The notes beneath the pieces were generated by a model. The model was not told the DNA's origin. It made no database searches and saw nothing but the letters and a program-made list of their open reading frames with translations. 64,000 nt of DNA from a virus. Lineage: Duplodnaviria; Caudoviricetes. Numbering within the stretch: position 1 is the first letter of the stretch; each line of letters starts with the position of its first letter. The position numbers and the translations under genes are program-made. The stretch lies in the IMG/VR virus record IMGVR_UViG_3300038673_000220, positions 1 through 64,000 of that record, one strand, 5' to 3'. Of the stretch, positions 2,135 through 47,287 are shown one piece after another.

Positions 2135-2385
2135 TGAAATATATCAATATCGATGGAATCGGGATGATAACATTTCCAGATACCATTGATCATTCAAAGA
2201 TGTATGATCTTGTTTCAAAACTTAAACCTGGAGCATCTATAATCGGTGCTGGTAAAATCGGTGGTCAAGGTGATGAACTCGTTCCTGATTATCTCTATTG
2301 CTATGGTGAATCTATAACTTTAGGTTATCGATGTGATGAAGAGAAAGATAATTGGGAATTAGAAAGAAACTTAAGATTGTTTTAA
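2131..2385 (+). CDS. hypothetical protein
   Basis: RBS GGAGG; overlaps the upstream stop. Confidence 0.65.
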   Translation: MMKYINIDGIGMITFPDTIDHSKMYDLVSKLKPGASIIGAGKIGGQGDELVPDYLYCYGESITLGYRCDEEKDNWELERNLRLF

Positions 2386-2419
2386 TCATAATACAAATTC
2401 TGTTAAGGATAAGACCACT

Positions 2420-2791
2420 ATGAATACCATCATTGATAAACTGACAGTTAAAGCTCTCCAGGCTATGACCATAGCTGAATTCACTCAATACGCTAAAGAG
2501 GTTATCGAACCGAAGTTTAAAAATAGGAACGAAGGATTCGGATTTCGGTTTCCTTATGCTCTTAATTGTAGAATGGAAGAGAAGATGGCTGATTGTAGCA
2601 AACAACTACGCTATACAGCATTTTTGAATAACAGTGGGAGACTTTGTCATATCATCTCACCTGATGATAGTGACTTTATTTTAAGGATACGTTTCCATAG
2701 ATCGATCAAGTCTTATTCTGAAAAGAAACAACGGATCGCTATATGGATGAAAGCGCATAAATGGATCGATATTGGAGAATGTCCGAAATGA
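2420..2791 (+). CDS. hypothetical protein
   Basis: RBS AAGGA; in operon. Confidence 0.6.
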   Translation: MNTIIDKLTVKALQAMTIAEFTQYAKEVIEPKFKNRNEGFGFRFPYALNCRMEEKMADCSKQLRYTAFLNNSGRLCHIISPDDSDFILRIRFHRSIKSYSEKKQRIAIWMKAHKWIDIGECPK

Positions 2792-3207
2792 TACAACTAT
2801 CCGAATTAAAAAGCACCCTTGAAGATAATTTTCAAGGGTGCTACACCTTCCCAAAGTTGGAGGATGAGGCTAAAAAATCAACAAGCAATATAACTTGTAT
2901 ATGTCCTCTCCATGGGGAGTTTAAAAAGAGATTATCATATCTCACTAATGACAAAATGGGGTGTCCTCATTGCGCTGATCTTCGAAGAGTTATCGCTATG
3001 AAGAGTGATGTTGATAACGCTCTTAAAGAAATGATAGCTTTTTATAAATACGTTATGAATCCTGTTTATACTGACATGCTTATCGTTAGTACGAGTAGGA
3101 ATGCTTTTCAAAATTATCCAAGACTAGCGAATAATTCTTATCAACTACTGAAGTTTGTTTATTTTAGATACAGACTGATTAGTGGTCATGATGCTTTTTC
3201 ATTGTAA
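2761..3207 (+). CDS. zinc-ribbon protein (DUF723-like, homing-endonuclease-associated)
   Basis: ICPLHGEF...GCPHCA motif; true start probably a downstream ATG. Confidence 0.6.
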   Translation: MDRYWRMSEMIQLSELKSTLEDNFQGCYTFPKLEDEAKKSTSNITCICPLHGEFKKRLSYLTNDKMGCPHCADLRRVIAMKSDVDNALKEMIAFYKYVMNPVYTDMLIVSTSRNAFQNYPRLANNSYQLLKFVYFRYRLISGHDAFSL

Positions 3208-3229
3208 TTAAGTGTAAAAATATACCGAA

Positions 3230-4267
3230 ATGAATATTTTACAAAGTAAACTTAACCTTATTTTAGATGGTGGTTTGGGATCATCGGGTAAAGGCCTCTT
3301 AGCTGAGTATCTTGGATTGACTAACCATGTTGATATAGCGATAACATCAGCAGCAAGTAATGCTGGTCATTCGTTCATCTATCATGGGAAGAAGAATATT
3401 TCCAAATACATCCCAGTATCAGGTATAATAAACAAACGATCAACCATCTATCTTTGTTCTGGAGCTATCATCAATCCAAATATTTTCATAAAGGAGGTCG
3501 AGCATTTCGATATTGCACCTGATAGAATTATCATCCATCCGAATTGTGCTGTTATAGATGATGATGATATTCTTAATGAAAAAGATAAGGATAGCGCTAC
3601 AACGAAGTTGTCATCAACTCAATCTGGTGTAGGGAGAGCTTTATCTCGGAAGATCTTAAGAGAATCTGAATTAGCTGGATCTAATCCTATACTTAAACGA
3701 TTCACTCAAGATTTCGATCTTCAGTATTTATTGGATCAAGGTTGTACAGCTCTTATGGAAATCCCACAAGGTATGGACCTTAGCCTAAATGGTCCTTTTT
3801 ATCCTTATTGTACATCTCGTGATATTTCTGTAAGCTCAGCTTTGAATGATGCTCAAGTTCATCCATTCTATCTAGGAAAGGTATGTTGTGTTATAAGGAC
3901 TTTCCCAATACGAGTTGGGAATATCAAAGATGAGAATGGAAATGAGATCGGGTACAGTGGACCTTTCTATGATGATGCTGAGGAATTGTCATGGAAGGAT
4001 ATTGGTGTTGATCCAGAAATAACAACCGTAACAGGTAGAGAGAGACGAGTCTTTGAATTTTCAATGAAGCAATATCGAAAGATGATTAAGTCATTCCGTC
4101 CTGATTATGTTTTGTTGAATTTTGGTAATTATCTTGAATTAGATCGATTAGATGATCTCGTTAAACGATTACCTAAAGTAACTCACATCGGACTTGGTCC
4201 AGAAGTGAGTGATATAATTACGATTAAAGAATTCAAAAATGCTGTTAAATACTCAAGAATAAAATAA
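3230..4267 (+). CDS. purZ: PurZ-type adenylosuccinate synthetase homolog (N6-succino-2-amino-2'-deoxyadenylate synthase)
   Basis: GSSGKG where PurA has GDEGKG (Asp to Ser); SNAGH, STQSG, YPYCTSRD, RTFPIRVGN, TTVTGRERRVFEFS; LNFGNY where PurA has TKLD; short 345-aa length as in PurZ. Confidence 0.8.
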   Translation: MNILQSKLNLILDGGLGSSGKGLLAEYLGLTNHVDIAITSAASNAGHSFIYHGKKNISKYIPVSGIINKRSTIYLCSGAIINPNIFIKEVEHFDIAPDRIIIHPNCAVIDDDDILNEKDKDSATTKLSSTQSGVGRALSRKILRESELAGSNPILKRFTQDFDLQYLLDQGCTALMEIPQGMDLSLNGPFYPYCTSRDISVSSALNDAQVHPFYLGKVCCVIRTFPIRVGNIKDENGNEIGYSGPFYDDAEELSWKDIGVDPEITTVTGRERRVFEFSMKQYRKMIKSFRPDYVLLNFGNYLELDRLDDLVKRLPKVTHIGLGPEVSDIITIKEFKNAVKYSRIK

Positions 4268-5423: not shown

Positions 5424-6026
5424 ATGAGGAATATCATCGTGACAAACGCAAAAATTGTAACAAATGGTATTGAACAGTATGAGTCATCTAAGAAAAATAA
5501 TCGAGGATACTCTGAACTTAATAATAATTATTATCGTGATAATCTCAAAAACATCTATGACAATTTGTATAAGAATATAGCTTCCAAAAAGCATTTAACG
5601 ATTATAGGTATATTCAATTATGCTGATACTGAAGAATTTAAACAACTTGGTATAGGTGGACGTAATCATGTACTTATATTCTGCAACATATGTAAAAAAT
5701 TCAGTATAATAACCATCGCATCGTTTCTAAGATCGAAACATAAATGCAAATATTGCTTTTACAATGCGTTGAAAAAGCGTCGACACAATAAACCAGAAAA
5801 AGCTTCATACACTTTCGAAGATTTAGTTAGAAAAGGTAAAGAAGTTCATGGTGATATCTACACTTATATTGGTAAGGATAGACATCATAATGGTGCGTCT
5901 CGTATTATTTATAAGTGTAATATATGCGGTCATATCAATAATCAATTGGCTCATAATCATTTTAAAGGAAGTGGGTGTTATAATTGTAACATCCTTAAGA
6001 GATCTTTAAATACTAGGAGAACTTAA
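5424..6026 (+). CDS. zinc-ribbon repeat protein (DUF723-like), no nuclease domain evident
   Basis: CNICKK, CKYC, VHGDIYTY, CNICGH, HFKGSGCYNC. Confidence 0.6.
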   Translation: MRNIIVTNAKIVTNGIEQYESSKKNNRGYSELNNNYYRDNLKNIYDNLYKNIASKKHLTIIGIFNYADTEEFKQLGIGGRNHVLIFCNICKKFSIITIASFLRSKHKCKYCFYNALKKRRHNKPEKASYTFEDLVRKGKEVHGDIYTYIGKDRHHNGASRIIYKCNICGHINNQLAHNHFKGSGCYNCNILKRSLNTRRT

Positions 6027-6487
6027 TGATGAGTTTGAAATTACTTCTACCATTATTATTACAGATATTAGGTTCTATATTCAAAAAGAAGCATCCTCAA
6101 AATCCACAATCTCTACCTGTTATACAAAAAGTTGAATCTAAGAAAATACCTAATGAACAATTCTTTTTTGAACTTGGCGCTAAGTATTTTGATAATTGGA
6201 TCTTGGGTGAACCCATTATTATAGATCCAAAGATAGAAGATCCTCAATCCATTTATAAATGGATAGATGGCTTTAATTCAAAACTATCATCTGGTAATCT
6301 TGATAATGTCAGAAAATTCAAAGAGAGAGTAGATCTCTTATTTGAATTAGCAACTGTTATTCGTAACGTTGAGGGTATCGCCCCTACTACTGTAGGTGCA
6401 AGCCTTGGACAGCTACTAGTTCGCTTACGAACTATCGATGGGGAAAGGTTTGATAGGGAAGTTTTGAAGATCGTCAAAAAGAAATAA
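6026..6487 (+). CDS. hypothetical protein
   Basis: RBS GGAG; hydrophobic N terminus. Confidence 0.6.
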   Translation: MMSLKLLLPLLLQILGSIFKKKHPQNPQSLPVIQKVESKKIPNEQFFFELGAKYFDNWILGEPIIIDPKIEDPQSIYKWIDGFNSKLSSGNLDNVRKFKERVDLLFELATVIRNVEGIAPTTVGASLGQLLVRLRTIDGERFDREVLKIVKKK

Positions 6488-6500
6488 AAAGGAGAGAATC

Positions 6501-7148
6501 ATGTTTGACTTTATTTTTAACAAGCATCGTATGTCATTTTTCAGGTCGAGTTTGTACATACCGATCATTATGGCTTTTGTATTGATTAATTATTTAAAAC
6601 TTACAGAATTTGAGACGATGTCAACATGCGTAATAGTCGCGTGTATCTCAGTTGTGTCGATAATTTTTAATAGACATTATTTCTGTAAGCTTTTTATTAG
6701 TGAAATATTAATTATTGATATGATAGCATCATTCTTTATAATCTTCTTTTTAGCATCTAAAGTTCATAGCGCTGAAATAGTTTATCCTGATATAACTGTT
6801 AAAATAAATCGAGTGTATGATGGTGATACGATATTCGTTGATGTACCTAATATACCAGATGCTTTTGGTAAAGAACTCGGAATACGTATACGAGGTATCG
6901 ATACTCCCGAAATAAAAGGAACTTGTGATAAAGAGAAACAATTAGCTTTAACAGCTAAGGATCTTGTTGTTAAGCTCCTAGAAAAAGAAAACTTCATAGT
7001 TTTAACGAATATAGGACGTGATAGATATTTTCGATTGGATGCTGATATCATTTTGAAGGACGGGTCAAGCGTTGCTGATATTTTATTGAAAGCTGGTTTG
7101 GCTTATCCTTATGACGGACAAACTTCCAAACAATCATGGTGCGATTAA
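6501..7148 (+). CDS. membrane-anchored thermonuclease (SNase family)
   Basis: VYDGDTI, IRIRGIDTPE, DRYFR, LLKAGLA motifs after three hydrophobic segments. Confidence 0.85.
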   Translation: MFDFIFNKHRMSFFRSSLYIPIIMAFVLINYLKLTEFETMSTCVIVACISVVSIIFNRHYFCKLFISEILIIDMIASFFIIFFLASKVHSAEIVYPDITVKINRVYDGDTIFVDVPNIPDAFGKELGIRIRGIDTPEIKGTCDKEKQLALTAKDLVVKLLEKENFIVLTNIGRDRYFRLDADIILKDGSSVADILLKAGLAYPYDGQTSKQSWCD

Positions 7149-7456
7149 GTATGCGATTTATATCATATTTTGCTGATTTATTATTCATCGTAATGGGAGC
7201 AACATTCCTTTCGAAGGTCATTATGCATAAACAATTCAAAAAAGATGTTGATGTTGATGAAACTCTTCAAGAAGTCGTGTTACGATTGATTTATCACGAG
7301 GATATGAAGAGTATACGAATGATCATAAAATGCATGTCTAGAGATGGTGTCATCCAATTTAGAGCTCATCTTCAAGATCATGTAGATAAATTCAAAGAAG
7401 GATCAAAGATAATGTACTATCATCAAATCATTGAATACATCGATGGTGTATTATGA
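7136..7456 (+). CDS. hypothetical membrane protein
   Basis: N-terminal hydrophobic segment; in operon. Confidence 0.5.
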   Translation: MVRLSMRFISYFADLLFIVMGATFLSKVIMHKQFKKDVDVDETLQEVVLRLIYHEDMKSIRMIIKCMSRDGVIQFRAHLQDHVDKFKEGSKIMYYHQIIEYIDGVL

Positions 7457-7926
7457 GACGGTATTTAGCCTATTTAAAATATATCGTACTTCATAAATAC
7501 TATGTTTTCAAGATCGGTAGAATGATGAAGATCCCCATCGTACAACTTATTTTACACGACTTGAGTAAATTCTACTTATTCGAATTTAAGAATTACGCTT
7601 ATGCGTATTATGATGAACAAGGTAAATCAAATTACGCTTATCATGACGGGCTCGATAGAGCTTGGAATCTTCATCAAAAAAGAAACAAACATCATTGGCA
7701 GTATTGGATATGTTTGAATGATTCTGGCAAAACTACATTCTTAGATATACCCGAGGTTTATTTAAGAGAGATGGTTGCTGATATGCTAGCTATGGATGAA
7801 TGTGACGTAGGTGATAATTCTTTGACTTATTTTAAAAAGATAAAAGATTCTATCATAATGAAATCTTGTGATAAAAACTATATTGAAAAATTGATTATAA
7901 CTTATGGAGGATATGGAGTTGACTGA
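7453..7926 (+). CDS. HD-superfamily protein (DUF5662-like)
   Basis: HKYYV...LHDLSKF...HQKRNKHHWQYW...EMVAD. Confidence 0.75.
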   Translation: MRRYLAYLKYIVLHKYYVFKIGRMMKIPIVQLILHDLSKFYLFEFKNYAYAYYDEQGKSNYAYHDGLDRAWNLHQKRNKHHWQYWICLNDSGKTTFLDIPEVYLREMVADMLAMDECDVGDNSLTYFKKIKDSIIMKSCDKNYIEKLIITYGGYGVD

Positions 7927-27381: not shown

Positions 27382-28773
27382 ATCATACTAAGAAGATGAC
27401 CCTTTCCTTTAGGTGAGGGGGTACTGAGAATCATAAATTATCCATACAGAACGCATAATCCAAAAGGATCAATCATGAACCTAACAGCTCAGGTAAAACT
27501 GGAGCCTGATGCTGATCAGGCTTTATCATTAACTCGAACCATGCAGCTCTTTAATGATGCTTGCAACTTTGTAGCTAAATTAGCTTTTAAGCGTAAAGTA
27601 TACCATCCAGTAGCGTTGCACAATCTCAAGATCAGCGACAGCACACTTTATTACCATCTTAGAGCTACTTATCCAAAGCTCAATTCGATACAAATCGAAC
27701 TGGTTTTTCGTAAGGTGGCTGATGCTTATAAAACACGCTTAAAACGCTTAAAGAAGAGGAAGAAGCTAAAGCATCCTTGCAGGTTCAAAGAGATGAGCAG
27801 CATTCCTTATAATCATCTTATCAGTAACTATAAGCTTATCGTAGCTTCGGCTGGAGATAGAGCAATCACTCCACACCTTTCAGTCGTTTTAGTTGACGAT
27901 GCTCGATACAAACGTTCTAAGATCGATTACATCGTAGCTGATCATCAGCGTAAGATATTAGCTAACGCTGTTCCTGGAACGTTTGGCGGAGAATCGCGGA
28001 TCTCATTCCGAAAAGGCGCTTTTTATATCAACATCCCAGTGGAGCAATGCGTTGCTCCAGAAGCTATCGATCCGATCAGATCGATTGGAGTGGATCTTGG
28101 AGTAGTGAATATCGCAACTACTTCGTATGGTAAGATCTTCAGTGGAGAGCTTATCGAAAATAAGCGGTTGAAGTTCCAGAAGCATCGATCTTCATTACAA
28201 AAGTGTGGATCGAAATCAGCTAAGCGTCGGTTGAAGTCAGTAGCTGGTAAAGAAGCACGTTTTCGCAAAGATCTCAATCATTGCATCAGTAAAGAGCTCG
28301 TTGTTGCGGCTAAAGGCACAAGTTCACGGATCGTGTTGGAGGATCTCACCAACATCCGAGAACAGACAACGGTTAGGAAGCAGCAACGAGCTCGTCATCA
28401 TGGTTGGAGTTTTGCTCAATTACGTGAGTTCATCGGCTACAAAGCAGCTATGGCTCAAGTGGAAGTTAAGGTTGTGGATCCGAGCTACACGAGCCAAAGA
28501 TGCAATAACTGCGGAAGCATCAGTCGATCGAACCGAAGAAATCAGTTCCGATTCAGCTGCAAAAGTTGCGGTCATGATGCTCATGCAGATTACAACGCCG
28601 CTTGCAATCTAGCTTGGTTAGGAGATAATGGTGCTGAACGATTCGTTAAGGATGAGTTGATGCACTAAAGACTATGTTGGGGCTGTAACTGTCAACCAGC
28701 CTTATGTAGGGGTGCTATCGGAGCAATGATAGAGCTACTTACAAGCCTCTTCCTTTAGGTGGAGGTTGTTGAC
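27382..28773 (+). mobile_element. non-autonomous IS200/IS605 (IS1341-type) element, copy 1
   Basis: Appears identical to 45896..47287; left hairpin CCCTTTCC-TTTA-GGTGAGGG, right hairpin CCTCTTCC-TTTA-GGTGGAGG, ends in TTGAC; no TSD, no tnpA; left end is 27382 or 27384. Confidence 0.9.
27475..28668 (+). CDS. tnpB: TnpB RNA-guided endonuclease
   Basis: RuvC triad GVDLG / VLEDL / ADYNAA; TSQRCNNCG...CKSCG zinc finger. Confidence 0.95.
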   Translation: MNLTAQVKLEPDADQALSLTRTMQLFNDACNFVAKLAFKRKVYHPVALHNLKISDSTLYYHLRATYPKLNSIQIELVFRKVADAYKTRLKRLKKRKKLKHPCRFKEMSSIPYNHLISNYKLIVASAGDRAITPHLSVVLVDDARYKRSKIDYIVADHQRKILANAVPGTFGGESRISFRKGAFYINIPVEQCVAPEAIDPIRSIGVDLGVVNIATTSYGKIFSGELIENKRLKFQKHRSSLQKCGSKSAKRRLKSVAGKEARFRKDLNHCISKELVVAAKGTSSRIVLEDLTNIREQTTVRKQQRARHHGWSFAQLREFIGYKAAMAQVEVKVVDPSYTSQRCNNCGSISRSNRRNQFRFSCKSCGHDAHADYNAACNLAWLGDNGAERFVKDELMH

Positions 28774-29417: not shown

Positions 29418-30941
29418 ATGTCAAATGTATTAAGTAAGATGAAACGTAAAAATAAACGTATCGATAAGAAGACAGTAAAACAACTTAAGACGCAAAGCTC
29501 GAAGATGGATTTCAAATCCAAAGTACTTCCAAATACTCTCTATGTTGATGTTAAGAATTCGATCATTTACATAGGTGATGACACAAACCTCATTGGTAAC
29601 TGTAAACGTCTCGAAGTAGGTACTACGATTGAATCTAATGATCAACTCCTTGAGGATCTGAAGAAATTAGATAAGGATAGTATTAACAAAGTTATCTTAG
29701 ATAATCAGGATAATTTTAAGATCCTTTCATTCGATGAGTTTATTACGAATCTCACTCTCAACATTGACAAATTGAAGAATCATCTTTCATCTCGTATCTT
29801 TCATCTTGATGATAAATTCGGATCATTGATTCTGATGTTGCAACATTCTAGTGGTAATTATTTTTGCGTATCAGTTGATTCAACAAATGAGGAACAGTAC
29901 GTCATCTTAACTAAGTTCAACGAGTTTTTTGAATTCGTAGATACGAAAGAGTATCATGAATTTGGAAATATAACCGTTGTTAAAGAACGTCAGGATGGCA
30001 TGATCGTTTTCATTGGTGTTGATCACGATGGATACAAATCAACTATCGTTATCGTTGATGATAAGCTTAATGTTTTTGTGAAAAATGAAATCGACATAGA
30101 GGATTCATTTGTCGTTGCACGATCTATTGAATTTATTAATGAGGATATCTTCATTATCGGTATTGCTGAGCGACATAGTAAAGGTACTGGATACGGACTT
30201 ATCATTAAGTTTGACAAAGATCTTTACGATCCAGAATTCAAGTTGTTTGAAAACACAGATTCTAATTTCATAGGATTCACTGCATCTACAATTACCGACA
30301 TCTGTAGTGAGAAACAGTTGTTGGTTTCAGGATTGTCTGAGACTAAGATTGGAGATACTGAAAGAATGGTCGTATCATTCTTTTATTTTGATACGGATCT
30401 CAATATCAAAAGATCTGAATCTGTTATCACAAGTGAGTCTGTAGTTATTAATGACATCATCCAAGATGACTCATCTCTTATCGGTTGTGGTATCATATTC
30501 GAAGATGAAGATACACCTATCATTTTCTCAAAATCAGATAATAGCTTTGTCATGTATAAGATCCAGGGTGATGTCTCAGGATTGACTCAAATAACCGTCA
30601 GTGATGATGATCTGATATTCTCTGGAAAAATGTTACCAAATACTCAAAAATCAGATATCGCAACGATCATCGTAACAAATAAAGCTCTAGAGTTTAAATA
30701 CGCTAGAATGTTTGAAGAATCACCGTCGATGATTGTTAATGTAAATAAAACCAATAAAGGTGTTTTAACAACGATATCTTCTGATACATCAACGTTTGCT
30801 CTTGAAGCGAAATCTTTTAAGTCATTAAATTACAATGATAAAAAGATCTTTGGTAATAGGACTGTTAAATACGAAGAGCTATCTAGCCGATTCATTCCAT
30901 TCGGTTTAACAGAGCTTCCTATTGAGATCAACATCAAATGA
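29418..30941 (+). CDS. beta-strand-rich (beta-propeller-like) protein
   Basis: Repeated IIKFDxxL / G...I..I blades; start moved to the ATG after AAGGA. Confidence 0.6.
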   Translation: MSNVLSKMKRKNKRIDKKTVKQLKTQSSKMDFKSKVLPNTLYVDVKNSIIYIGDDTNLIGNCKRLEVGTTIESNDQLLEDLKKLDKDSINKVILDNQDNFKILSFDEFITNLTLNIDKLKNHLSSRIFHLDDKFGSLILMLQHSSGNYFCVSVDSTNEEQYVILTKFNEFFEFVDTKEYHEFGNITVVKERQDGMIVFIGVDHDGYKSTIVIVDDKLNVFVKNEIDIEDSFVVARSIEFINEDIFIIGIAERHSKGTGYGLIIKFDKDLYDPEFKLFENTDSNFIGFTASTITDICSEKQLLVSGLSETKIGDTERMVVSFFYFDTDLNIKRSESVITSESVVINDIIQDDSSLIGCGIIFEDEDTPIIFSKSDNSFVMYKIQGDVSGLTQITVSDDDLIFSGKMLPNTQKSDIATIIVTNKALEFKYARMFEESPSMIVNVNKTNKGVLTTISSDTSTFALEAKSFKSLNYNDKKIFGNRTVKYEELSSRFIPFGLTELPIEINIK

Positions 30942-30946
30942 AATAA

Positions 30947-30977
30947 CTAAGGATCAGAGGATGCCTCTGATCCTTAG
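30947..30977 (+). terminator. hairpin
   Basis: CTAAGGATCAGAGG-ATG-CCTCTGATCCTTAG. Confidence 0.7.
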
Positions 30978-31049
30978 GTTATATCTTATTATAAAAGCTA
31001 ATCATTATGTAGAACGCACCTCTATGAAAAATCTATAAATGGATTTAGT

Positions 31050-32399
31050 ATGAGTGATAATAAAATAATCAACAAGCAGTTCATACATTCATGTTCTATT
31101 CGAACAAAAACTGGAAATGCTGTAATCGTTAAAGAAAAAAACCAATACGAAGATGGAACCATCAAACCGAACCTAGTTTTATATGAGAATCCAAAGAGAT
31201 CCTTTTATATAACTCAACCAAAATACCGGACATACAATTACAAACCTGAATACGAATTAGCTTCAAGGCTTGACAAGATAACGGTTAGTGATCATGAGCT
31301 CTACTCGAAAGTAGCTGAGCTTTTTAATCTTGGTCCTGGGTATCATTCAGCTGATAAGCTTTTCAAATCACCGTATATCTTTGGAGCTGATATAAATGTT
31401 GAAGCTCTTATCAAGATGCGATATATGAATCAATACCCTGATTCATCTTTACTCCCAACTGTTGGATTCCTTGACATTGAGACAAGTATTGATACGAATC
31501 AGATCATCATGATATCTTATCTTCATGATACGACGGTTCATACCGCTATCCTTCGTTCATTCTTTTTTGAAGAAAAAGGTAAAGATCGAGTACCTATCAA
31601 TCTAGATGATCTTGTACCTTTCATCCAAAAGAACCTCGAAGGAAGAACTAAAGATATAAACTTCACTTATGACATTAAGATATTCGACATCGAAATAAAG
31701 CTCATAGCTTGGATCATGCAATGTATCCATATGTCAGAAACTGATTTTATATCTATCTGGAATATGAACTTCGATATCCCAAAGATCTTAGCTACTATTG
31801 TAAAATCAGGTTATCGTCCAGAGGATCTTTTCCATAATCCAAAACTTCCAACGAGATGCAAATACCTTAAGTATCACGAAGATAAGCAGAAAAAAGATCA
31901 CTTCACATTGAAATGGCATTGGCTTTATAGCTCATGTGGAACTCAATGCGTTGATGCAATGGGTCTTTATTCTCAATGTCGAAGAACTCAAGGTTATCTT
32001 GACAAGTATAGTCTTGATAACGTTCTTGATAAAGAGATTCAAATGGGGAAACTCCCACTTATCAGTGGATCTCACGTTATCATGCAACGTCATCATTTTA
32101 AAGAATACATCGTTTACAACATATTCGATGTCATTGGATTGAAGCTTCTTGAAGACAGGATCAATGATTTTGTATCTATGCATGTGCTTATAGGTCCAAC
32201 TCCAGTAAGCAAGTTTGCAACTCAGACCACTCGATCGACAAATGATATGTATTACGACCTTATCAACAAAGGTATGATCCTCTCATCTAAATCAGGTGAT
32301 GATCCTTTTATCAAATTCGATAAGTACTTACCTCGAGTAGGTGGTGCAGTTCTATCTGCGAGTCGAGTACGAGGAGTAGGGATTCCCTTAACCTTATGA
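31050..32399 (+). CDS. family B DNA polymerase, N-terminal 3'-5' exonuclease part (phiKZ gp082-like)
   Basis: ExoI FLDIET, ExoII WNMNFD, YSLDNV, ExoIII YNIFD, then GGAVL, which normally precedes motif A. Confidence 0.88.
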   Translation: MSDNKIINKQFIHSCSIRTKTGNAVIVKEKNQYEDGTIKPNLVLYENPKRSFYITQPKYRTYNYKPEYELASRLDKITVSDHELYSKVAELFNLGPGYHSADKLFKSPYIFGADINVEALIKMRYMNQYPDSSLLPTVGFLDIETSIDTNQIIMISYLHDTTVHTAILRSFFFEEKGKDRVPINLDDLVPFIQKNLEGRTKDINFTYDIKIFDIEIKLIAWIMQCIHMSETDFISIWNMNFDIPKILATIVKSGYRPEDLFHNPKLPTRCKYLKYHEDKQKKDHFTLKWHWLYSSCGTQCVDAMGLYSQCRRTQGYLDKYSLDNVLDKEIQMGKLPLISGSHVIMQRHHFKEYIVYNIFDVIGLKLLEDRINDFVSMHVLIGPTPVSKFATQTTRSTNDMYYDLINKGMILSSKSGDDPFIKFDKYLPRVGGAVLSASRVRGVGIPLTL

Positions 32400-32938
32400 A
32401 CGAAGATTTTTTTCCTATTTCAAAAGATACCGATGTCAAATGCTATCGTTGTAAAAAAGAAAATACTCAATCTGAAGAGCAGTTTTACCTTACAGAGTGG
32501 GAACTTTCTACAGGAGCATCAACTGACGGTATTTATTATTGTCATTCTTGTATAATTAATAGTGGAGAACATACAATGATCACATTGCTTGAACCTAAAA
32601 ATCCAAAGTCAGATAAAAAAGATAAAAACGTACCAGTAACTGTATTCACCTTAACTTTCGCTACAATCGATCTGAATTATTCGAACGTATCGATATCGAA
32701 GAAGGTACCTAATAGCAGGCTTGAATTGAACGAATCTGTATTAAATGATCATTTTGATGATATCATCAGGGATTATAATGATCCAAGTATTTCTACCATT
32801 AAGGGAGTATTTAATGGAAAATACGTTAACGTCGAAAAGAAATACATATCAGGATTCTTCGTTGATGTGCTTCATAAAGTTGAAGGTGAAGCTTGTAATG
32901 GTTTTGATAATGATGGTCTACCTCCTTGGAATCCTTAA
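32396..32938 (+). CDS. zinc-finger hypothetical protein inside the polymerase gap
   Basis: CYRC...CHSC; ATGA overlap with the polymerase stop. Confidence 0.6.
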   Translation: MNEDFFPISKDTDVKCYRCKKENTQSEEQFYLTEWELSTGASTDGIYYCHSCIINSGEHTMITLLEPKNPKSDKKDKNVPVTVFTLTFATIDLNYSNVSISKKVPNSRLELNESVLNDHFDDIIRDYNDPSISTIKGVFNGKYVNVEKKYISGFFVDVLHKVEGEACNGFDNDGLPPWNP

Positions 32939-32959
32939 TCCGATTAAGAGGAAACAATA

Positions 32960-34207
32960 TTGGAATTGTATTTTATCATTACAACTATCATAGATAGATT
33001 CAGAGAATATGCTTCGATAGAAAATTGTATTAGTGAACGATTTATGTATTTAGCTTATCTCTTAGCTAATATCGATAACGATCCACCATCATTCAAACAT
33101 CTCGTCGTTGAAGCGTTATCTCGTCAGGTTCATGGTGATGATTATGAGTATCCGTATGATGAAACTATCTATACTGATCTCATTTTCGTTGAAACTAAAA
33201 TCCCTATCATCTGTAAAACGCATGGTTTATTTTACCTAACATTGAGAGAGCATCTCATACCTCCCATCATAGATGCAGACGAAGCTTTTAAGCTCGATAT
33301 TCGAGATAATTACCCTCACGGATGCTTGACTTGTATCAATGAAATCAAAAACTCGAATGCAAGACGTCGATTAACTACTTCGATGTTCCTCATGCAATTA
33401 GAACAATATCCAGACTCATTAAAGGTTGATTATAGCCTTGTAAGATATGGTATTCCAACTGATGGGTCCTCTAGTGTTGATTCTGATGGTAAAAGGATAG
33501 ATCCTTCAAGTATTCCGATAGCTCTTATCTGTAGAGAGTGTAGCACTCCTGATAATAAAGTCATCTATTATCAGAGACCTTATATCCATATAAAAGGATT
33601 CAAAAAGAATCAAGGAACTGGGTGTAAAGAGTGTCATAAGAAGTTGAGAATTGAAGTTGGTAAAAGAATATGGGAAGATGAAGCTTTTCGTAAGTCTAAA
33701 ACCGAAGCTACTAGAATCCAAATGAATGATCCAATTATGAGAGAAAAATTGCGATCATGGATGACAGAGCGGAATAAGGATCCTGAGTTTAGGAAACTTA
33801 TGAGTTCTGAGGAGGTTCGTAAGAATAGGAGTATATCTAACTCTAATTTTGATAGATCAACTCCATCTGATGTTTATCTTCTTACTGGATATTCATCTGA
33901 ATTTGGATATTTGATCAAGGTTGGATGCAGCTCTAATATCCATAGTAGATTAGCCAATCTCAAGGTTGGTAATGATATCAATTTTGAGTTGATTTGGTCA
34001 AAACATTTCGAAAACGGTATTGAAGCTTTTAAATTGGAGGATTTCATCTTAAATAATGAAACAATTCTGAATCATAAATGGAATGGTGATATGGGGAGTA
34101 TTGTTCGTAAAGGAAGTACAGAAATCCTAACTTTTTCATCAGAAGAAGAACGATCTAAGATCCTCAATTTCATCATCCAAATTTCAGATACTTCCAAATT
34201 CAACTAA
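32960..34207 (+). CDS. putative homing endonuclease (zinc ribbons, NUMOD-like repeats, GIY-YIG/T5orf172-like domain)
   Basis: IICKTHG, GCLTC, GCKEC; DVYLL...IKVGCSSNIHSRLANL...LE...GSTE. Confidence 0.75.
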   Translation: MELYFIITTIIDRFREYASIENCISERFMYLAYLLANIDNDPPSFKHLVVEALSRQVHGDDYEYPYDETIYTDLIFVETKIPIICKTHGLFYLTLREHLIPPIIDADEAFKLDIRDNYPHGCLTCINEIKNSNARRRLTTSMFLMQLEQYPDSLKVDYSLVRYGIPTDGSSSVDSDGKRIDPSSIPIALICRECSTPDNKVIYYQRPYIHIKGFKKNQGTGCKECHKKLRIEVGKRIWEDEAFRKSKTEATRIQMNDPIMREKLRSWMTERNKDPEFRKLMSSEEVRKNRSISNSNFDRSTPSDVYLLTGYSSEFGYLIKVGCSSNIHSRLANLKVGNDINFELIWSKHFENGIEAFKLEDFILNNETILNHKWNGDMGSIVRKGSTEILTFSSEEERSKILNFIIQISDTSKFN

Positions 34208-34319
34208 CCTATTATATAACAAGATTCATTTCAGCATTTTTAGGAAACTTGAAAAATACACCTCTTTTGACAGTTTCCTAAAAATACCATTTTAAACCAT
34301 TCCACATGGAGGTTTAATT

Positions 34320-34613
34320 TTGCAATTAAGCTTCGAAACGATGTTCTCGATACTAGTAGCAGACCTTGATTACTCAAGTCTTTATCCAAGTATTATGAGA
34401 GCGATAAATCAGAGTCGGATGACTCTAACATTTGTACCTATCTTGATTGATGGAATGACTCGAGATGAACTTGATAGGTACTTTAGTAATCTTGTAAATG
34501 TTAGAGAAAACGCTGAAACTCTTTGTTCTGTTTATCACGGATTTCCAGATTACCAAGAAATGTACCAATTAGTTAGGGACTATCAGTATAGAGACCAACC
34601 CTCAATTAATTGA
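34320..34613 (+). CDS. family B DNA polymerase, motif A fragment
   Basis: VADLDYSSLYPSIMRAIN; own GGAGG RBS (34308-34312) and TTG start. Confidence 0.85.
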   Translation: MQLSFETMFSILVADLDYSSLYPSIMRAINQSRMTLTFVPILIDGMTRDELDRYFSNLVNVRENAETLCSVYHGFPDYQEMYQLVRDYQYRDQPSIN

Positions 34614-34629
34614 AGGATAATAAATTATC

Positions 34630-35292
34630 ATGAAATTCATTATGTTTTGTGGAGATGATCGAGTCGGTAAATCGACAATGTCAAGATCATTACAATCATT
34701 GATCCATAGAGGTTTTCGTGTTAAAACATCCATCGTATCTTTTGCAGATGGTGTAAGAGATGAATTAGTTAATCTCTATGGTATTCCAAATGAGATTATA
34801 TATAACAAAACCATCGATAAGAAGAAGTTGAATCTTTGCCTCGGTGATTATACATATGAAGGAATCATACCACAGTTGTGGATGAAATATGGCTTAATTG
34901 GTAAGCTTTCTGACTATTCTGATATAGAGATATCTTTACGGGATCTTTTCGTAACTCATGGAACGAAGATCAGACGTCAAGAAGATGATCTTTATTGGAA
35001 TAAGATCGTTAAAGAAAAAGTAGCATCATTCGATGATATTGAAATATGTATCATTGATGATCCAAGATCACCATCGGATTTTGAATTCGACACGTTGATT
35101 TTTCATCTAAACAACAATCAACCAGCTCATTATAATCTTGAACAACAGAGATTCCATGATTGGTTAAAAAATAACGAACATCGCATAGATTTGAGTGTAG
35201 ATCTACCTGTACATTTACTTGAATTCGATGCAGATAAAATAAATAAACAAATCATCTTACCGTATATTCGTGATAAGATGATTATTAAATAA
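34630..35292 (+). CDS. deoxynucleoside monophosphate kinase-like P-loop protein
   Basis: GDDRVGKST, SFADGVR, GTKIRR, IIDDPR (T4 gp1-like layout). Confidence 0.75.
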   Translation: MKFIMFCGDDRVGKSTMSRSLQSLIHRGFRVKTSIVSFADGVRDELVNLYGIPNEIIYNKTIDKKKLNLCLGDYTYEGIIPQLWMKYGLIGKLSDYSDIEISLRDLFVTHGTKIRRQEDDLYWNKIVKEKVASFDDIEICIIDDPRSPSDFEFDTLIFHLNNNQPAHYNLEQQRFHDWLKNNEHRIDLSVDLPVHLLEFDADKINKQIILPYIRDKMIIK

Positions 35293-35300
35293 GGTGGTTT

Positions 35301-35858
35301 GTGATGCAAAATCAGATATCTTGGCTCTCTTTTGATCTTGGGAGTAATCTCGGTTGGAACAAAAGCGTTTGTACGTTCCGACCTGAGTTAAAAATAAACG
35401 TTGTTGATCATGGTACTATCGATTTGAATCATTTGGCTTCCGAATGGTCTAAGCGTAATTACAGTGAAGTACTCACTCCACGACGTATCAGGATCAATAT
35501 CTTCATGGAGCAAATCAAGAAACTCGTTGATAACTCAAATGCTGACGCTTTTGTTACGGAAGATGTTTTCTGTAATCCTCATCGAGTCGATGCGTTCAGA
35601 GCATTAGTTATCTACATGGATCGATTAGAAAGCTACATCAATAATGAAAAGAACAAACGTTTATACACTATCCCTGCAACTCAGATCAAAAAGCATATCA
35701 GTAATTATGGACATGCTGATAAGTCGTTAGTCATCAAATCTGTTTTGGACAATAACCAAATAACTATGAAAAGGCCTCAAGATGCAACGACTCATGAGTT
35801 TGACAGTGTTGCTGTTGTTTGGGGTTTCATCAGAGAATACCTGATGGTTCAAGTTTGA
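35301..35858 (+). CDS. ruvC: RuvC-like Holliday junction resolvase
   Basis: SFDLG, FVTED, IKKHI...GHADK, HEFDSVAV. Confidence 0.85.
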   Translation: MMQNQISWLSFDLGSNLGWNKSVCTFRPELKINVVDHGTIDLNHLASEWSKRNYSEVLTPRRIRINIFMEQIKKLVDNSNADAFVTEDVFCNPHRVDAFRALVIYMDRLESYINNEKNKRLYTIPATQIKKHISNYGHADKSLVIKSVLDNNQITMKRPQDATTHEFDSVAVVWGFIREYLMVQV

Positions 35859-35859
35859 G

Positions 35860-35870
35860 ATATATATCAT
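35860..35870 (+). promoter_or_regulatory. ATATATATCAT promoter motif
   Basis: Recurring motif upstream of the thyX RBS. Confidence 0.7.
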
Positions 35871-35905
35871 CCTGTAATATCAAATCTACTCATGAGGAGA
35901 AAATA

Positions 35906-37300
35906 ATGTTTCAAGTATCAACTCAGGAAGACCGGACTCCTTCCAGATTAACGCGATATGCTGCTTCTAAATGTTACAATCGTAACAGTGAAGAGTGTTT
36001 GAAGAATTGTGATAAAATAGATATTCCAAATGCTTTAGGTAAAACTGGACATCATACAACGCTTCAACATTCGAGTAACTATATCTCATTCGATATTGAA
36101 AATATACCAGTGAGTCTAGCTACATTCGGTCTCCATCTTACGCATCCATTTTACAATTCGAGTCAACGAAGTGGTCGTTATTGTTTGGATATGTTTGATG
36201 GGGACAACCGTATTCAGCTTGTTGAATACATTCAGCAGTTTAAGAAAAAGTATATCGGTGATACACCTTACGATTTAAAGATCCTTAACTGGTTCTTACG
36301 AGGATTTGATTTCTTTCATGATAATATCGATAAGGTCCAAGCTTTAGCTAAGGACGCTCTCTATAAAGAGCGTCCTCATTATAAACTCGATATCGAACGT
36401 CAATCTTTAAGGATAGCTCAAGACCAACTACGTGTGTTTATCTCAACGATCGTTCCAACCGGAATGGTTTACACGATCAATCATATCGCTCTATTTGCAT
36501 TATATGCTTCAGCTTGGAATGATCCATTAAAAGATCTTACACAGCAGATGATACATCAGATCGAAGATCTTGATATCATACGAACATTTGATTCATTGAA
36601 TCTAAAACAAACTAATGATTATCATCCTCATTTCGAATGTTATGGTGATGAGAATAAGGTCTTTGGTATTTTGAATAAACCAGAAGTTAATGTTCATCTT
36701 ACTAAGATCATTAATGATGATAACTTTGATAAATTTGAATCGCTCTTTAAATCGCACGCTGTTCTTGATACGCTCTATTTTGATCCAAACTGTTATCCAG
36801 AGGATATCGATGATCTTTATTGTACTGAGTTTAAGGCGACTGTCAAAGTACCAGTTGTGACTTTTGGTCAGGATCAACGTCATCGTATGATCTCAAGAAC
36901 GTTAGCGAAGGTTACTGGTGATTTTTACATATCTCCATTACTTGAGAAAGTTCCAGGTGTGATCGATTTTGCAGCAAGATTCGCTAATGAATACAATGAG
37001 TTAGTGAATAATGTTGGACCACGTAATATGATCCATTTTATTCCATATGGTTCAGTTGTTGAATACGCTAAACGGTATGATTATAGAGCGTATGCTCATT
37101 GTATTCATAAACGTATGTGCTTCAATGCTGAAGCAACTATTTGGAAGATGGAGAATGAAACGATCAGACAGCTTTTTGCACTGATGAATCGTGATCGAAA
37201 AGAATCTGTTATAGGACCACCATGTTTAAATGGGAAGTGTCCTGAAGGAAAAAGAAGTTGTGGTAAAGAAAGAAGTTGTTTAACACGTAATCTCATTTAA
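35906..37300 (+). CDS. thyX: flavin-dependent thymidylate synthase, long two-domain form
   Basis: GHHTTLQH, SQRSGRY, QDQRHR; start moved to the ATG after GAGGAG. Confidence 0.8.
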   Translation: MFQVSTQEDRTPSRLTRYAASKCYNRNSEECLKNCDKIDIPNALGKTGHHTTLQHSSNYISFDIENIPVSLATFGLHLTHPFYNSSQRSGRYCLDMFDGDNRIQLVEYIQQFKKKYIGDTPYDLKILNWFLRGFDFFHDNIDKVQALAKDALYKERPHYKLDIERQSLRIAQDQLRVFISTIVPTGMVYTINHIALFALYASAWNDPLKDLTQQMIHQIEDLDIIRTFDSLNLKQTNDYHPHFECYGDENKVFGILNKPEVNVHLTKIINDDNFDKFESLFKSHAVLDTLYFDPNCYPEDIDDLYCTEFKATVKVPVVTFGQDQRHRMISRTLAKVTGDFYISPLLEKVPGVIDFAARFANEYNELVNNVGPRNMIHFIPYGSVVEYAKRYDYRAYAHCIHKRMCFNAEATIWKMENETIRQLFALMNRDRKESVIGPPCLNGKCPEGKRSCGKERSCLTRNLI

Positions 37301-45905: not shown

Positions 45906-47287
45906 GAAGATGACCCTTTCCTTTAGGTGAGGGGGTACTGAGAATCATAAATTATCCATACAGAACGCATAATCCAAAAGGATCAATCATGAACCTAACA
46001 GCTCAGGTAAAACTGGAGCCTGATGCTGATCAGGCTTTATCATTAACTCGAACCATGCAGCTCTTTAATGATGCTTGCAACTTTGTAGCTAAATTAGCTT
46101 TTAAGCGTAAAGTATACCATCCAGTAGCGTTGCACAATCTCAAGATCAGCGACAGCACACTTTATTACCATCTTAGAGCTACTTATCCAAAGCTCAATTC
46201 GATACAAATCGAACTGGTTTTTCGTAAGGTGGCTGATGCTTATAAAACACGCTTAAAACGCTTAAAGAAGAGGAAGAAGCTAAAGCATCCTTGCAGGTTC
46301 AAAGAGATGAGCAGCATTCCTTATAATCATCTTATCAGTAACTATAAGCTTATCGTAGCTTCGGCTGGAGATAGAGCAATCACTCCACACCTTTCAGTCG
46401 TTTTAGTTGACGATGCTCGATACAAACGTTCTAAGATCGATTACATCGTAGCTGATCATCAGCGTAAGATATTAGCTAACGCTGTTCCTGGAACGTTTGG
46501 CGGAGAATCGCGGATCTCATTCCGAAAAGGCGCTTTTTATATCAACATCCCAGTGGAGCAATGCGTTGCTCCAGAAGCTATCGATCCGATCAGATCGATT
46601 GGAGTGGATCTTGGAGTAGTGAATATCGCAACTACTTCGTATGGTAAGATCTTCAGTGGAGAGCTTATCGAAAATAAGCGGTTGAAGTTCCAGAAGCATC
46701 GATCTTCATTACAAAAGTGTGGATCGAAATCAGCTAAGCGTCGGTTGAAGTCAGTAGCTGGTAAAGAAGCACGTTTTCGCAAAGATCTCAATCATTGCAT
46801 CAGTAAAGAGCTCGTTGTTGCGGCTAAAGGCACAAGTTCACGGATCGTGTTGGAGGATCTCACCAACATCCGAGAACAGACAACGGTTAGGAAGCAGCAA
46901 CGAGCTCGTCATCATGGTTGGAGTTTTGCTCAATTACGTGAGTTCATCGGCTACAAAGCAGCTATGGCTCAAGTGGAAGTTAAGGTTGTGGATCCGAGCT
47001 ACACGAGCCAAAGATGCAATAACTGCGGAAGCATCAGTCGATCGAACCGAAGAAATCAGTTCCGATTCAGCTGCAAAAGTTGCGGTCATGATGCTCATGC
47101 AGATTACAACGCCGCTTGCAATCTAGCTTGGTTAGGAGATAATGGTGCTGAACGATTCGTTAAGGATGAGTTGATGCACTAAAGACTATGTTGGGGCTGT
47201 AACTGTCAACCAGCCTTATGTAGGGGTGCTATCGGAGCAATGATAGAGCTACTTACAAGCCTCTTCCTTTAGGTGGAGGTTGTTGAC
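45896..47287 (+). mobile_element. non-autonomous IS200/IS605 element, copy 2
   Basis: Appears identical to 27382..28773 (offset 18514). Confidence 0.9.
45989..47182 (+). CDS. tnpB: TnpB RNA-guided endonuclease
   Basis: Same protein sequence as 27475..28668. Confidence 0.95.
   Translation: MNLTAQVKLEPDADQALSLTRTMQLFNDACNFVAKLAFKRKVYHPVALHNLKISDSTLYYHLRATYPKLNSIQIELVFRKVADAYKTRLKRLKKRKKLKHPCRFKEMSSIPYNHLISNYKLIVASAGDRAITPHLSVVLVDDARYKRSKIDYIVADHQRKILANAVPGTFGGESRISFRKGAFYINIPVEQCVAPEAIDPIRSIGVDLGVVNIATTSYGKIFSGELIENKRLKFQKHRSSLQKCGSKSAKRRLKSVAGKEARFRKDLNHCISKELVVAAKGTSSRIVLEDLTNIREQTTVRKQQRARHHGWSFAQLREFIGYKAAMAQVEVKVVDPSYTSQRCNNCGSISRSNRRNQFRFSCKSCGHDAHADYNAACNLAWLGDNGAERFVKDELMH

Follow-up and report, generated by a model that had tools for sequence, protein, structure and literature searches.

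The polymerase locus

The window analysed here covers the first 64 kb of a viral contig of 149 kb (IMG/VR record IMGVR_UViG_3300038673_000220) that is estimated to be ~54% complete. It carries a gene for the N subunit of a phiKZ-type family-B DNA polymerase, which is divided into two reading frames with a homing-endonuclease-like cassette between them. The source is a phiKZ-like jumbo phage whose proteins share <30% identity with those of cultured relatives, and no near-identical DNA was found in cultured phages.

Four successive open reading frames (ORFs) on the + strand make up the locus. The first, the DNAP-N1 cistron (N1; coordinates 31050-32399), encodes 449 amino acids (aa) that include the N-terminal domain, the 3'-5' exonuclease and the first palm strand, GGAVL, and ends in ...GGAVLSASRVRGVGIPLTL followed by a TGA stop codon (32397-32399). 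This stop overlaps the ATG start codon of a 180-aa ORF (ATGA; 32396-32938) predicted to encode a zinc-ribbon protein with a CxxC...CxxC pattern. The third ORF (32960-34207; 415 aa) is homing-endonuclease-like and has a TTG start behind a GAGGAA ribosome-binding site (RBS); gene callers elsewhere place the start 28 codons downstream. The last, the DNAP-N2 cistron (N2; 34320-34613), encodes 97 aa that include ADLDYSSLYPS, the motif-A strand with the catalytic aspartate (D17), and a helical tail. It has a TTG start 7 nucleotides (nt) downstream of a GGAGG sequence (34308-34312). The distance between N1 and N2 is 1.9 kb, of which only 133 nt is non-coding (21 nt and 112 nt), and DNA and protein alignment to two relatives, L010 and L110 (L-numbers denote loci of relatives and P-numbers protein clusters), revealed that ~1.75 kb of it (~32570-34319, + strand) is absent from the nearest relatives that lack the cassette. 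The ORFs, motifs, RBS, stem and non-coding remainder recorded in a preliminary description of this DNA were all correct on re-reading.

N1 and N2 match successive parts of one polymerase subunit

N1 matched phrog_3011 ('DNA polymerase', 576 positions) over positions 11-462 (E 2.4e-92), and N2 matched positions 483-562 of the same family (E 1.3e-12). N1 also matched PF03104 (24.3 bits; cut-off 23), and N2 matched PF00136 over motif A (22.5 bits). As both match phrog_3011 at successive positions, the resemblance is no accident: N1 and N2 are parts of a single gene, and are identified by these matches as the divided N subunit of a phiKZ-type family-B polymerase. In cultured phiKZ-like phages both parts lie within one annotated gene (577-581 aa), as they do in the nearest unsplit homologue, P0044 (585 aa; 42% identity). 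A single polypeptide spanning the exonuclease and motif A is absent from the window, where the stop at 32397-32399 is followed by a separate start at 34320, and likewise from 44 related clusters.

In unsplit homologues a loop joins the GGAVL strand to motif A, and in alignments the end of N1 and the start of N2 together make up exactly this loop, none of its residues being absent and none added, which excludes intein or split-intein ends. There are thus no intein blocks at the C-terminal end of N1 or the N-terminal end of N2, and the earlier statement that there are no intein ends is upheld. The exonuclease motifs Exo I (DIET), Exo II (WNMNFD) and Exo III (YNIFD) were invariant in an alignment of 40 sequences. 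A profile of the unsplit proteins aligned with Exo I-III of RB69 gp43 and with its residues 404-433, making D17 of N2 the equivalent of RB69 D411; the counterpart in PhiKZ gp82 is D562. When a single unsplit homologue was used to search the PDB only chance matches were obtained, and a profile was needed to reach RB69 and T4 gp43.

The C subunit is encoded outside the window, on the minus strand of the contig (coordinates 142162-144423; 753 aa) and 108 kb from the N part. It matched phrog_2927 over its full length (E 7e-111) and includes KIKINAISG and DTDS, corresponding to motifs B and C. It is thus a separate, intact gene, in agreement with the statement in the preliminary description that a PolB of the phiKZ type is already two polypeptides. 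An intact copy of the N part elsewhere in the genome had also been raised there as a possibility, and none was found in the 149-kb contig.

The split is shared by a clade

A search of 5.8 billion proteins identified ~40 clusters with 41-71% identity to N1, all of 447-471 aa, and homologues at ≤42% identity that were mostly 541-630 aa. Clusters P0002-P0040, P0046, P0048 and P0056 all terminate after GGxVL...VGxxL. In a tree built from the exonuclease part only, 44 clusters formed one clade (support 99) in which all are split. This clade is nested among full-length forms and the window lies deep inside it, indicating that the break, which falls after the GGAVL strand and before motif A, was already present in the ancestor of the clade.

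DNA was retrieved for fifteen clade members. N1 and N2 are separated by 12 nt in L011, 11 nt in L013, 3 nt in L014, 21 nt in L015 and ~14 nt in both L100 and L101; they are likewise close-set in L104, L018 and L106, and the spacer in L051 is ~100 nt. The stop codon at the junction varies (TGA, TAA or TAG), and N1 and N2 are in the same frame at five of the seven junctions examined and out of frame at the other two. Every small ORF has its own start codon, as well as an RBS wherever this could be read. With varied stop codons, out-of-frame junctions and separate starts, readthrough, recoding or frameshifting is not the general solution. The prevalence of same-frame junctions was considered as a hint of readthrough and rejected in view of the differing stop codons and the two out-of-frame junctions.

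Among clade members, N2 has diverged at non-synonymous sites (dN 0.36-0.61), and synonymous sites are saturated, with dN/dS of 0.12-0.37 where the ratio could be computed. These values indicate that both pieces have long been maintained by purifying selection, and the saturation of synonymous sites between members suggests that the split long predates the lineage of the window. A split that is conserved and selected across the clade supports the proposal, made in the preliminary description, of a polymerase with three or more chains in which a tiny subunit bears a catalytic Asp.

The branch containing P0042 and P0043 (L015; coordinates 6001-7671) is split ~25 residues earlier than the main site, and the small subunit, of 125 aa, contains the GGAVL strand and continues uninterrupted through the main split site, suggesting that this loop tolerates being either joined or cut.

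Contents of the gap between N1 and N2

In most of the relatives fetched, no gene is present in the gap. The two closest relatives of the window, L010 and L110, carry a zinc-ribbon ORF only (61-65 aa), which is homologous to the first ~60 residues of the 180-aa ORF, whereas the window carries a two-gene insert of 1.9 kb. In L012 the gap is occupied by a gene for a 316-aa HNH endonuclease (phrog_374, E 1.5e-63) that is unrelated to the ORFs of the cassette in the window. The cassette is absent from L010, L110, L011, L013, L014, L100 and L101, a presence/absence polymorphism at one site. The preliminary description had held that the cassette split the gene, but relatives that lack the cassette share the split, with spacers of 3-21 nt. 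The gap, with its different occupants, is best described as a landing pad, and the cassette as an apparently later arrival between cistrons that were already separate.

The 180-aa ORF (32396-32938) had no Pfam or PHROG match. It consists of a ~60-aa N-terminal zinc ribbon and a ~120-aa C-terminal extension, and the zinc-ribbon domain has 18 clusters of homologues that are mostly proteins of 61-77 aa. A protein of 167 aa, P0129, has a C-terminal extension similar to that of the 180-aa ORF, and the longer form in the window is thus more than chance readthrough. In L010 and L110 the short ORFs may represent the ancestral state, or else what is left of a decayed cassette. A scan of viral contigs with a single protein found no further zinc-ribbon homologues.

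The zinc-ribbon domain (homologous to window 32396-32578) was also seen in tandem in P0125, P0126 and P0141, with 12 copies in two proteins (769 and 697 aa) and seven copies in one of 1894 aa. The unsplit P0044 (L016; coordinates 6001-7758) includes a short CxC...CxxC insert at residues ~440-465, just upstream of GGAVL. Its closeness to the position of the zinc-ribbon ORF in the split clade may be a coincidence or a trace of an older element.

The predicted product of the 415-aa ORF gave matches below the cut-off to PF10544 (T5orf172; 16.7 bits, cut-off 20) and PF13455 (MUG113; 15.9 bits, cut-off 22.3), both families of the GIY-YIG clan. It also matched phrog_681 'endonuclease' (E 4e-7), and a homologue with 37% identity, P0122, carries PF05265 (DUF723). 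Its neighbours in a language-model search were uniformly DUF723/T5orf172 phage proteins, with Atlas clusters scoring 0.93, and tblastn returned weak matches to annotated endonucleases of small phages. The ORF is present as a single copy in the contig. An assignment as a free-standing homing-endonuclease gene, with DUF723-type zinc fingers in the N-terminal part and T5orf172 in the C-terminal part of the product, is thus moderately well supported.

Contigs from four studies (a bioreactor, two wastewater sites and a landfill), all of DNA, cover the region. An 8.2-kb contig from an independent wastewater run is collinear with coordinates 30333-36500, right through the cassette, at ~88-93% identity, with divergence within the cassette similar to that outside it. 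Two further runs contain pieces of the cassette, and none of the contigs of the four studies was seen to join across it. The length differences listed within the cassette ORFs are multiples of 3 (a 3-nt deletion near 32915-32919, and 54 nt replaced by 69). The cassette is thus resident and not an artefact of assembly.

The spacer between the 415-aa ORF and N2 (34208-34319, + strand; 112 nt) includes two hairpins, identified from RNA folding and the sequence. The larger (34236-34285) has a 14-bp stem with a predicted free energy of -23.4 kcal/mol (z -3.7), and none of 200 shuffled sequences folded as well. The smaller predicted hairpin (34292-34317) pairs the GGAGG sequence of the N2 cistron. 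It resembles the RBS-sequestering hairpin of mobE, and here it is a piece of the polymerase that would be throttled. The base composition of the insert does not differ from that of its flanks, and scans for sigma-70 promoters and terminators found nothing inside the region above the expectation from shuffled sequence. The putative promoter motif ATATATATCAT has no copy on the + strand between 27376 and 35044, hence there is no promoter of that type in the cassette.

Introns at homologous loci

The Rfam models for group I and group II introns gave no match in coordinates 31000-35000 even at E≤10, which is in line with the earlier statement that there is no group I core. The group I model RF00028 served as a positive control and matched nine homologous loci of other lineages: L065 (92 and 87 bits, for two introns), L056 (79), L069 (69), L020 (64), L038 (57), L074 (51), L044 (49), L019 (41) and L048 (34). 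Most loci in the wider family are unsplit, and every interrupted locus outside the clade of the window has an RF00028 match, whereas L010, L012 and L051, the clade members tested, have none. The group I introns are positioned just after the GWI/GGAV strand or inside motif A, and some carry ORFs for HNH or DNA-binding proteins. These positions show a 35-codon stretch to be a hot spot for mobile elements.

The two introns of L065 are at tandem sites (region 6274-7112). A group I intron is present in L056 and L057 and is missing from their close relative L058.

Alternative explanations for the interrupted gene

In the reading of the preliminary description, this cassette split a formerly continuous gene when it inserted, on the model of mobE in Aeh1 nrdA. 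A homing-endonuclease-like gene does lie exactly between the pieces, and Aeh1 nrdA and T4 gene 60 provide precedents. However, all 44 clade clusters are split in this stretch and most of the members fetched are without the cassette, so that the same split in the relatives counts directly against the cassette as cause. Saturation of synonymous sites between split relatives makes the split far older than the lineage of the window, and an unrelated HNH gene sits in the same gap of L012. It is therefore improbable that this cassette was responsible. That an older endonuclease or intron, now lost, was the original cause is a different claim, and may be correct. It was also considered that the 1.9 kb might be a cryptic self-splicing group I or group II intron with nested ORFs, splicing of which would restore one mRNA. 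The two polymerase ORFs in the window are in the same genomic frame, there is a strong hairpin in the 3' spacer, and group I introns are common in the same region of the gene in other lineages. Yet the intron models, which gave 34-92 bits at nine homologous loci, found nothing here at E≤10, and only 133 nt of the 1.9 kb is non-coding. Relatives with spacers of 3-21 nt need no splicing but keep the stop, the RBS and the start, and N2 in the window has a GGAGG RBS of its own. A cryptic intron is thus very improbable.

Joining of the pieces at the level of protein or translation, through trans-splicing by a split intein, readthrough of the stop codon, frameshifting or ribosome hopping, would be in keeping with the five of seven junctions that are in the same frame. 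Split inteins are known from fractured genes that have a free-standing endonuclease between their parts (PMC2677866; phage MIJ3 PolB). However, neither piece has extra residues at its end, the stop codons include TGA, TAA and TAG, two junctions are out of frame, and in the window 1.9 kb with many stop codons separates the pieces, making joining of this kind hardly credible. An N subunit that is a decaying pseudogene, with replication carried out by a different polymerase whose gene lies in the half of the genome that is missing, would be compatible with a contig that is ~54% complete. However, in every relative examined both pieces are intact ORFs in which the catalytic motifs are conserved, dN/dS falls well short of 1, the C subunit that pairs with them is intact and no second copy was found in 149 kb. 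Decay of the gene is accordingly just as hard to credit.

A proposed three-chain polymerase

The structure of the PhiKZ polymerase provides a frame for these observations. DNAP-N (gp82) and DNAP-C (gp50; 731 aa) form a stable 1:1 interdigitated complex in which DNAP-N is one 638-aa chain that carries the motif-A residue D562, and DNAP-N residues 589-638 together with two segments of DNAP-C form a palm-insertion domain that wraps the palm (bioRxiv 10.64898/2026.09.30.755723). The catalytic aspartate is followed by 80 residues in the 97-aa N2 and by 76 in gp82. This similar length suggests that N2 is the counterpart of the last ~93 residues of gp82, comprising motif A and the first palm-insertion segment. 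When an unsplit homologue was modelled alone with AlphaFold2, residues 1-433 were predicted with confidence and residues 434-531 with low confidence, and the break could not be placed on a modelled hairpin. The low confidence over the palm part fits a need for the partner subunit in order to fold.

The N half of this replicase, which is of the phiKZ or chimallivirus type, is encoded by two cistrons. It is likely that the polymerase core consists of three chains and that the gap between the cistrons was later colonised by a free-standing endonuclease cassette. N2 would be translated from its own RBS and start codon, and N1, N2 and the C subunit would assemble non-covalently into an active core. 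By analogy with the PhiKZ structure, N2 would be held in the palm by strand pairing with the end of N1, and its helical tail would pack with the C subunit into the palm-insertion domain.

Several points weigh against this reading. A second, intact polymerase could sit in the unsequenced part of the genome, given that the contig is only ~54% complete. The three-chain assembly and its activity are predicted from sequence, and the structural role of N2 is transferred from PhiKZ at <30% identity. The identity of the endonuclease depends on sub-threshold Pfam matches, a PHROG match, one homologue and language-model matches. Within the subclade the order of events is ambiguous, as a once-complete cassette could have left the zinc-ribbon ORFs in L010 and L110 behind (compare P0129, which has an extended form like that in the window).

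As to the origin of the three-chain form, we conjecture that an old intron or endonuclease invaded the gene near motif A and left N1 with a stop codon and N2 with its own start. The intervening DNA would then have been lost, giving the compact two-cistron form of most clade members, and new elements would later have entered a gap that had become harmless. These last two steps are suggested by the distribution of gap contents among the relatives. In the lineage of the window, the gap would have gained the zinc-ribbon gene, which is common to the two closest relatives, and also the 1.75-kb DUF723-T5orf172 cassette, which would have brought with it the hairpin and supplied N2 with a new RBS and a TTG start. 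Insertion here would be harmless because the site was already intercistronic. The free-standing seg and mob genes of T4 spread by cutting and repair copying (PMC2988022). The endonuclease may similarly cut cassette-free alleles of co-infecting relatives near the conserved region, and repair by recombination would then copy the cassette into the cut allele (intronless homing). By analogy with the intron endonuclease of PhiPA3, it may also give its carrier a competitive advantage.

A wider picture can be offered only tentatively, as it is somewhat more likely to be wrong than right in its entirety. A large old clade of phiKZ-like phages would use a three-polypeptide replicase in which a mini-subunit of ~90 aa, carrying the motif-A Asp, is clamped between the exonuclease and C subunits. 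The split would be the fossil of an ancient intron or endonuclease invasion at motif A, and the gap a safe harbour entered repeatedly by unrelated homing endonucleases (T5orf172 and HNH) that possibly act as weapons against cassette-free relatives in co-infection.

Comparison with other interrupted phage genes

The nearest parallel is found in two T4-related Aeromonas phages, 25 and 44RR. In the account given in a review (Petrov et al. 2006, reviewed in PMC2988022), their gene 43 is split into 43A and 43B, and the gap is an untranslated spacer in one phage and holds a seg-type (GIY-YIG) homing endonuclease in the other (PMC2988022). In both systems the gene for a family-B replicative polymerase takes the form of two cistrons, and the gap holds a spacer or an endonuclease depending on the relative. 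However, the enzyme here is of the phiKZ type and already has two subunits, so that a further split would bring the number of chains to three. The added piece, of only ~90 aa, bears motif A, and the divided state has become fixed throughout a large old clade. The gap is occupied by endonucleases of other families, DUF723-T5orf172 and HNH.

PhiKZ gp82 and gp50 belong to the same PHROG families (3011 and 2927) as the subunits here. In both, the N part bears the exonuclease and motif A, whereas motifs B and C are found, together with the fingers and thumb, on a C part that is encoded far away. The difference is that the equivalent of the last ~93 residues of DNAP-N is here a separate polypeptide, and the PhiKZ polymerase paper makes no mention of any further split (bioRxiv 10.64898/2026.09.30.755723).

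In Aeh1 nrdA, insertion of the endonuclease gene mobE is held to have caused the split, and residues derived from the insertion help assembly (PMC3045599; PMC2988022). The locus here resembles it in that an essential gene of DNA metabolism is in two pieces with a free-standing homing endonuclease between them, and in that the stop codon of the first piece shares bases with the start codon that follows (ATGA here, UAAUGA in Aeh1). The Aeh1 nrdA pieces reassemble into an active enzyme, and selection on the pieces and the PhiKZ complex suggest the same reassembly here. In contrast to Aeh1, the split here predates the cassette and there are no extra residues at the break. The group I introns of phage polymerase genes, with or without HNH genes, target the same gene region, but no ribozyme core was detectable in the window or in the clade members tested, and the pieces have their own translation signals.

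In PhiPA3, an intron-encoded endonuclease, gp210, in the RNA polymerase gene is used in competition between chimalliviruses, and its effect has been measured (PMC11620839; PMC12908238). The arrangement here is similar in that a homing endonuclease sits within a polymerase gene that is essential to a phiKZ-like phage and may benefit its carrier against cassette-free relatives. However, the endonuclease here is free-standing and is known only as a sequence.

Full-text literature searches found no description of the present arrangement, a blank result that is not proof. What is new is a split within a polymerase that already has two subunits, giving three chains, a ~90-aa chain with a catalytic residue, and the fixation of this state in a large clade. 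A catalytic carboxylate on a free chain of ~90 residues would be an extreme natural test of the modularity of a replicase, and the first PhiKZ polymerase structure makes the prediction checkable, as the mini-subunit should be held by the palm-insertion domain. The locus also offers a comparative example of the aftermath of an invasion at an active-site motif, in which a permanent split of the gene would have been followed by a tolerated landing pad for endonucleases. In annotation, an ORF of ~90 aa after an 'exonuclease' gene of ~450 aa is to be read as a polymerase subunit and not as a hypothetical protein or a pseudogene fragment.

Other features of the window

A perfect 14-bp GC-rich palindromic hairpin (30947-30977), terminator-like on both strands, follows a 523-aa ORF and precedes the polymerase gene. 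Downstream of N2 (34630-37300) are dNMP-kinase-like (220 aa), RuvC-like (185 aa) and ThyX-like (493 aa) ORFs in an order that is conserved clade-wide; the ThyX-like ORF is unusually long, with its Thy1 domain in two stretches. The window also includes two 397-aa TnpB genes (OrfB_IS605/Cas12f1-like TNB; coordinates 27475-28668 and 45989-47182), and in L012 a TnpB gene (2292-3446) is found immediately upstream of the polymerase gene. A 345-aa ORF at 3230-4267 matches the adenylosuccinate synthetase family PF00709 above the cut-off in two stretches and is of PurZ-like length, which at the Pfam level bears out the earlier report that purZ is present.

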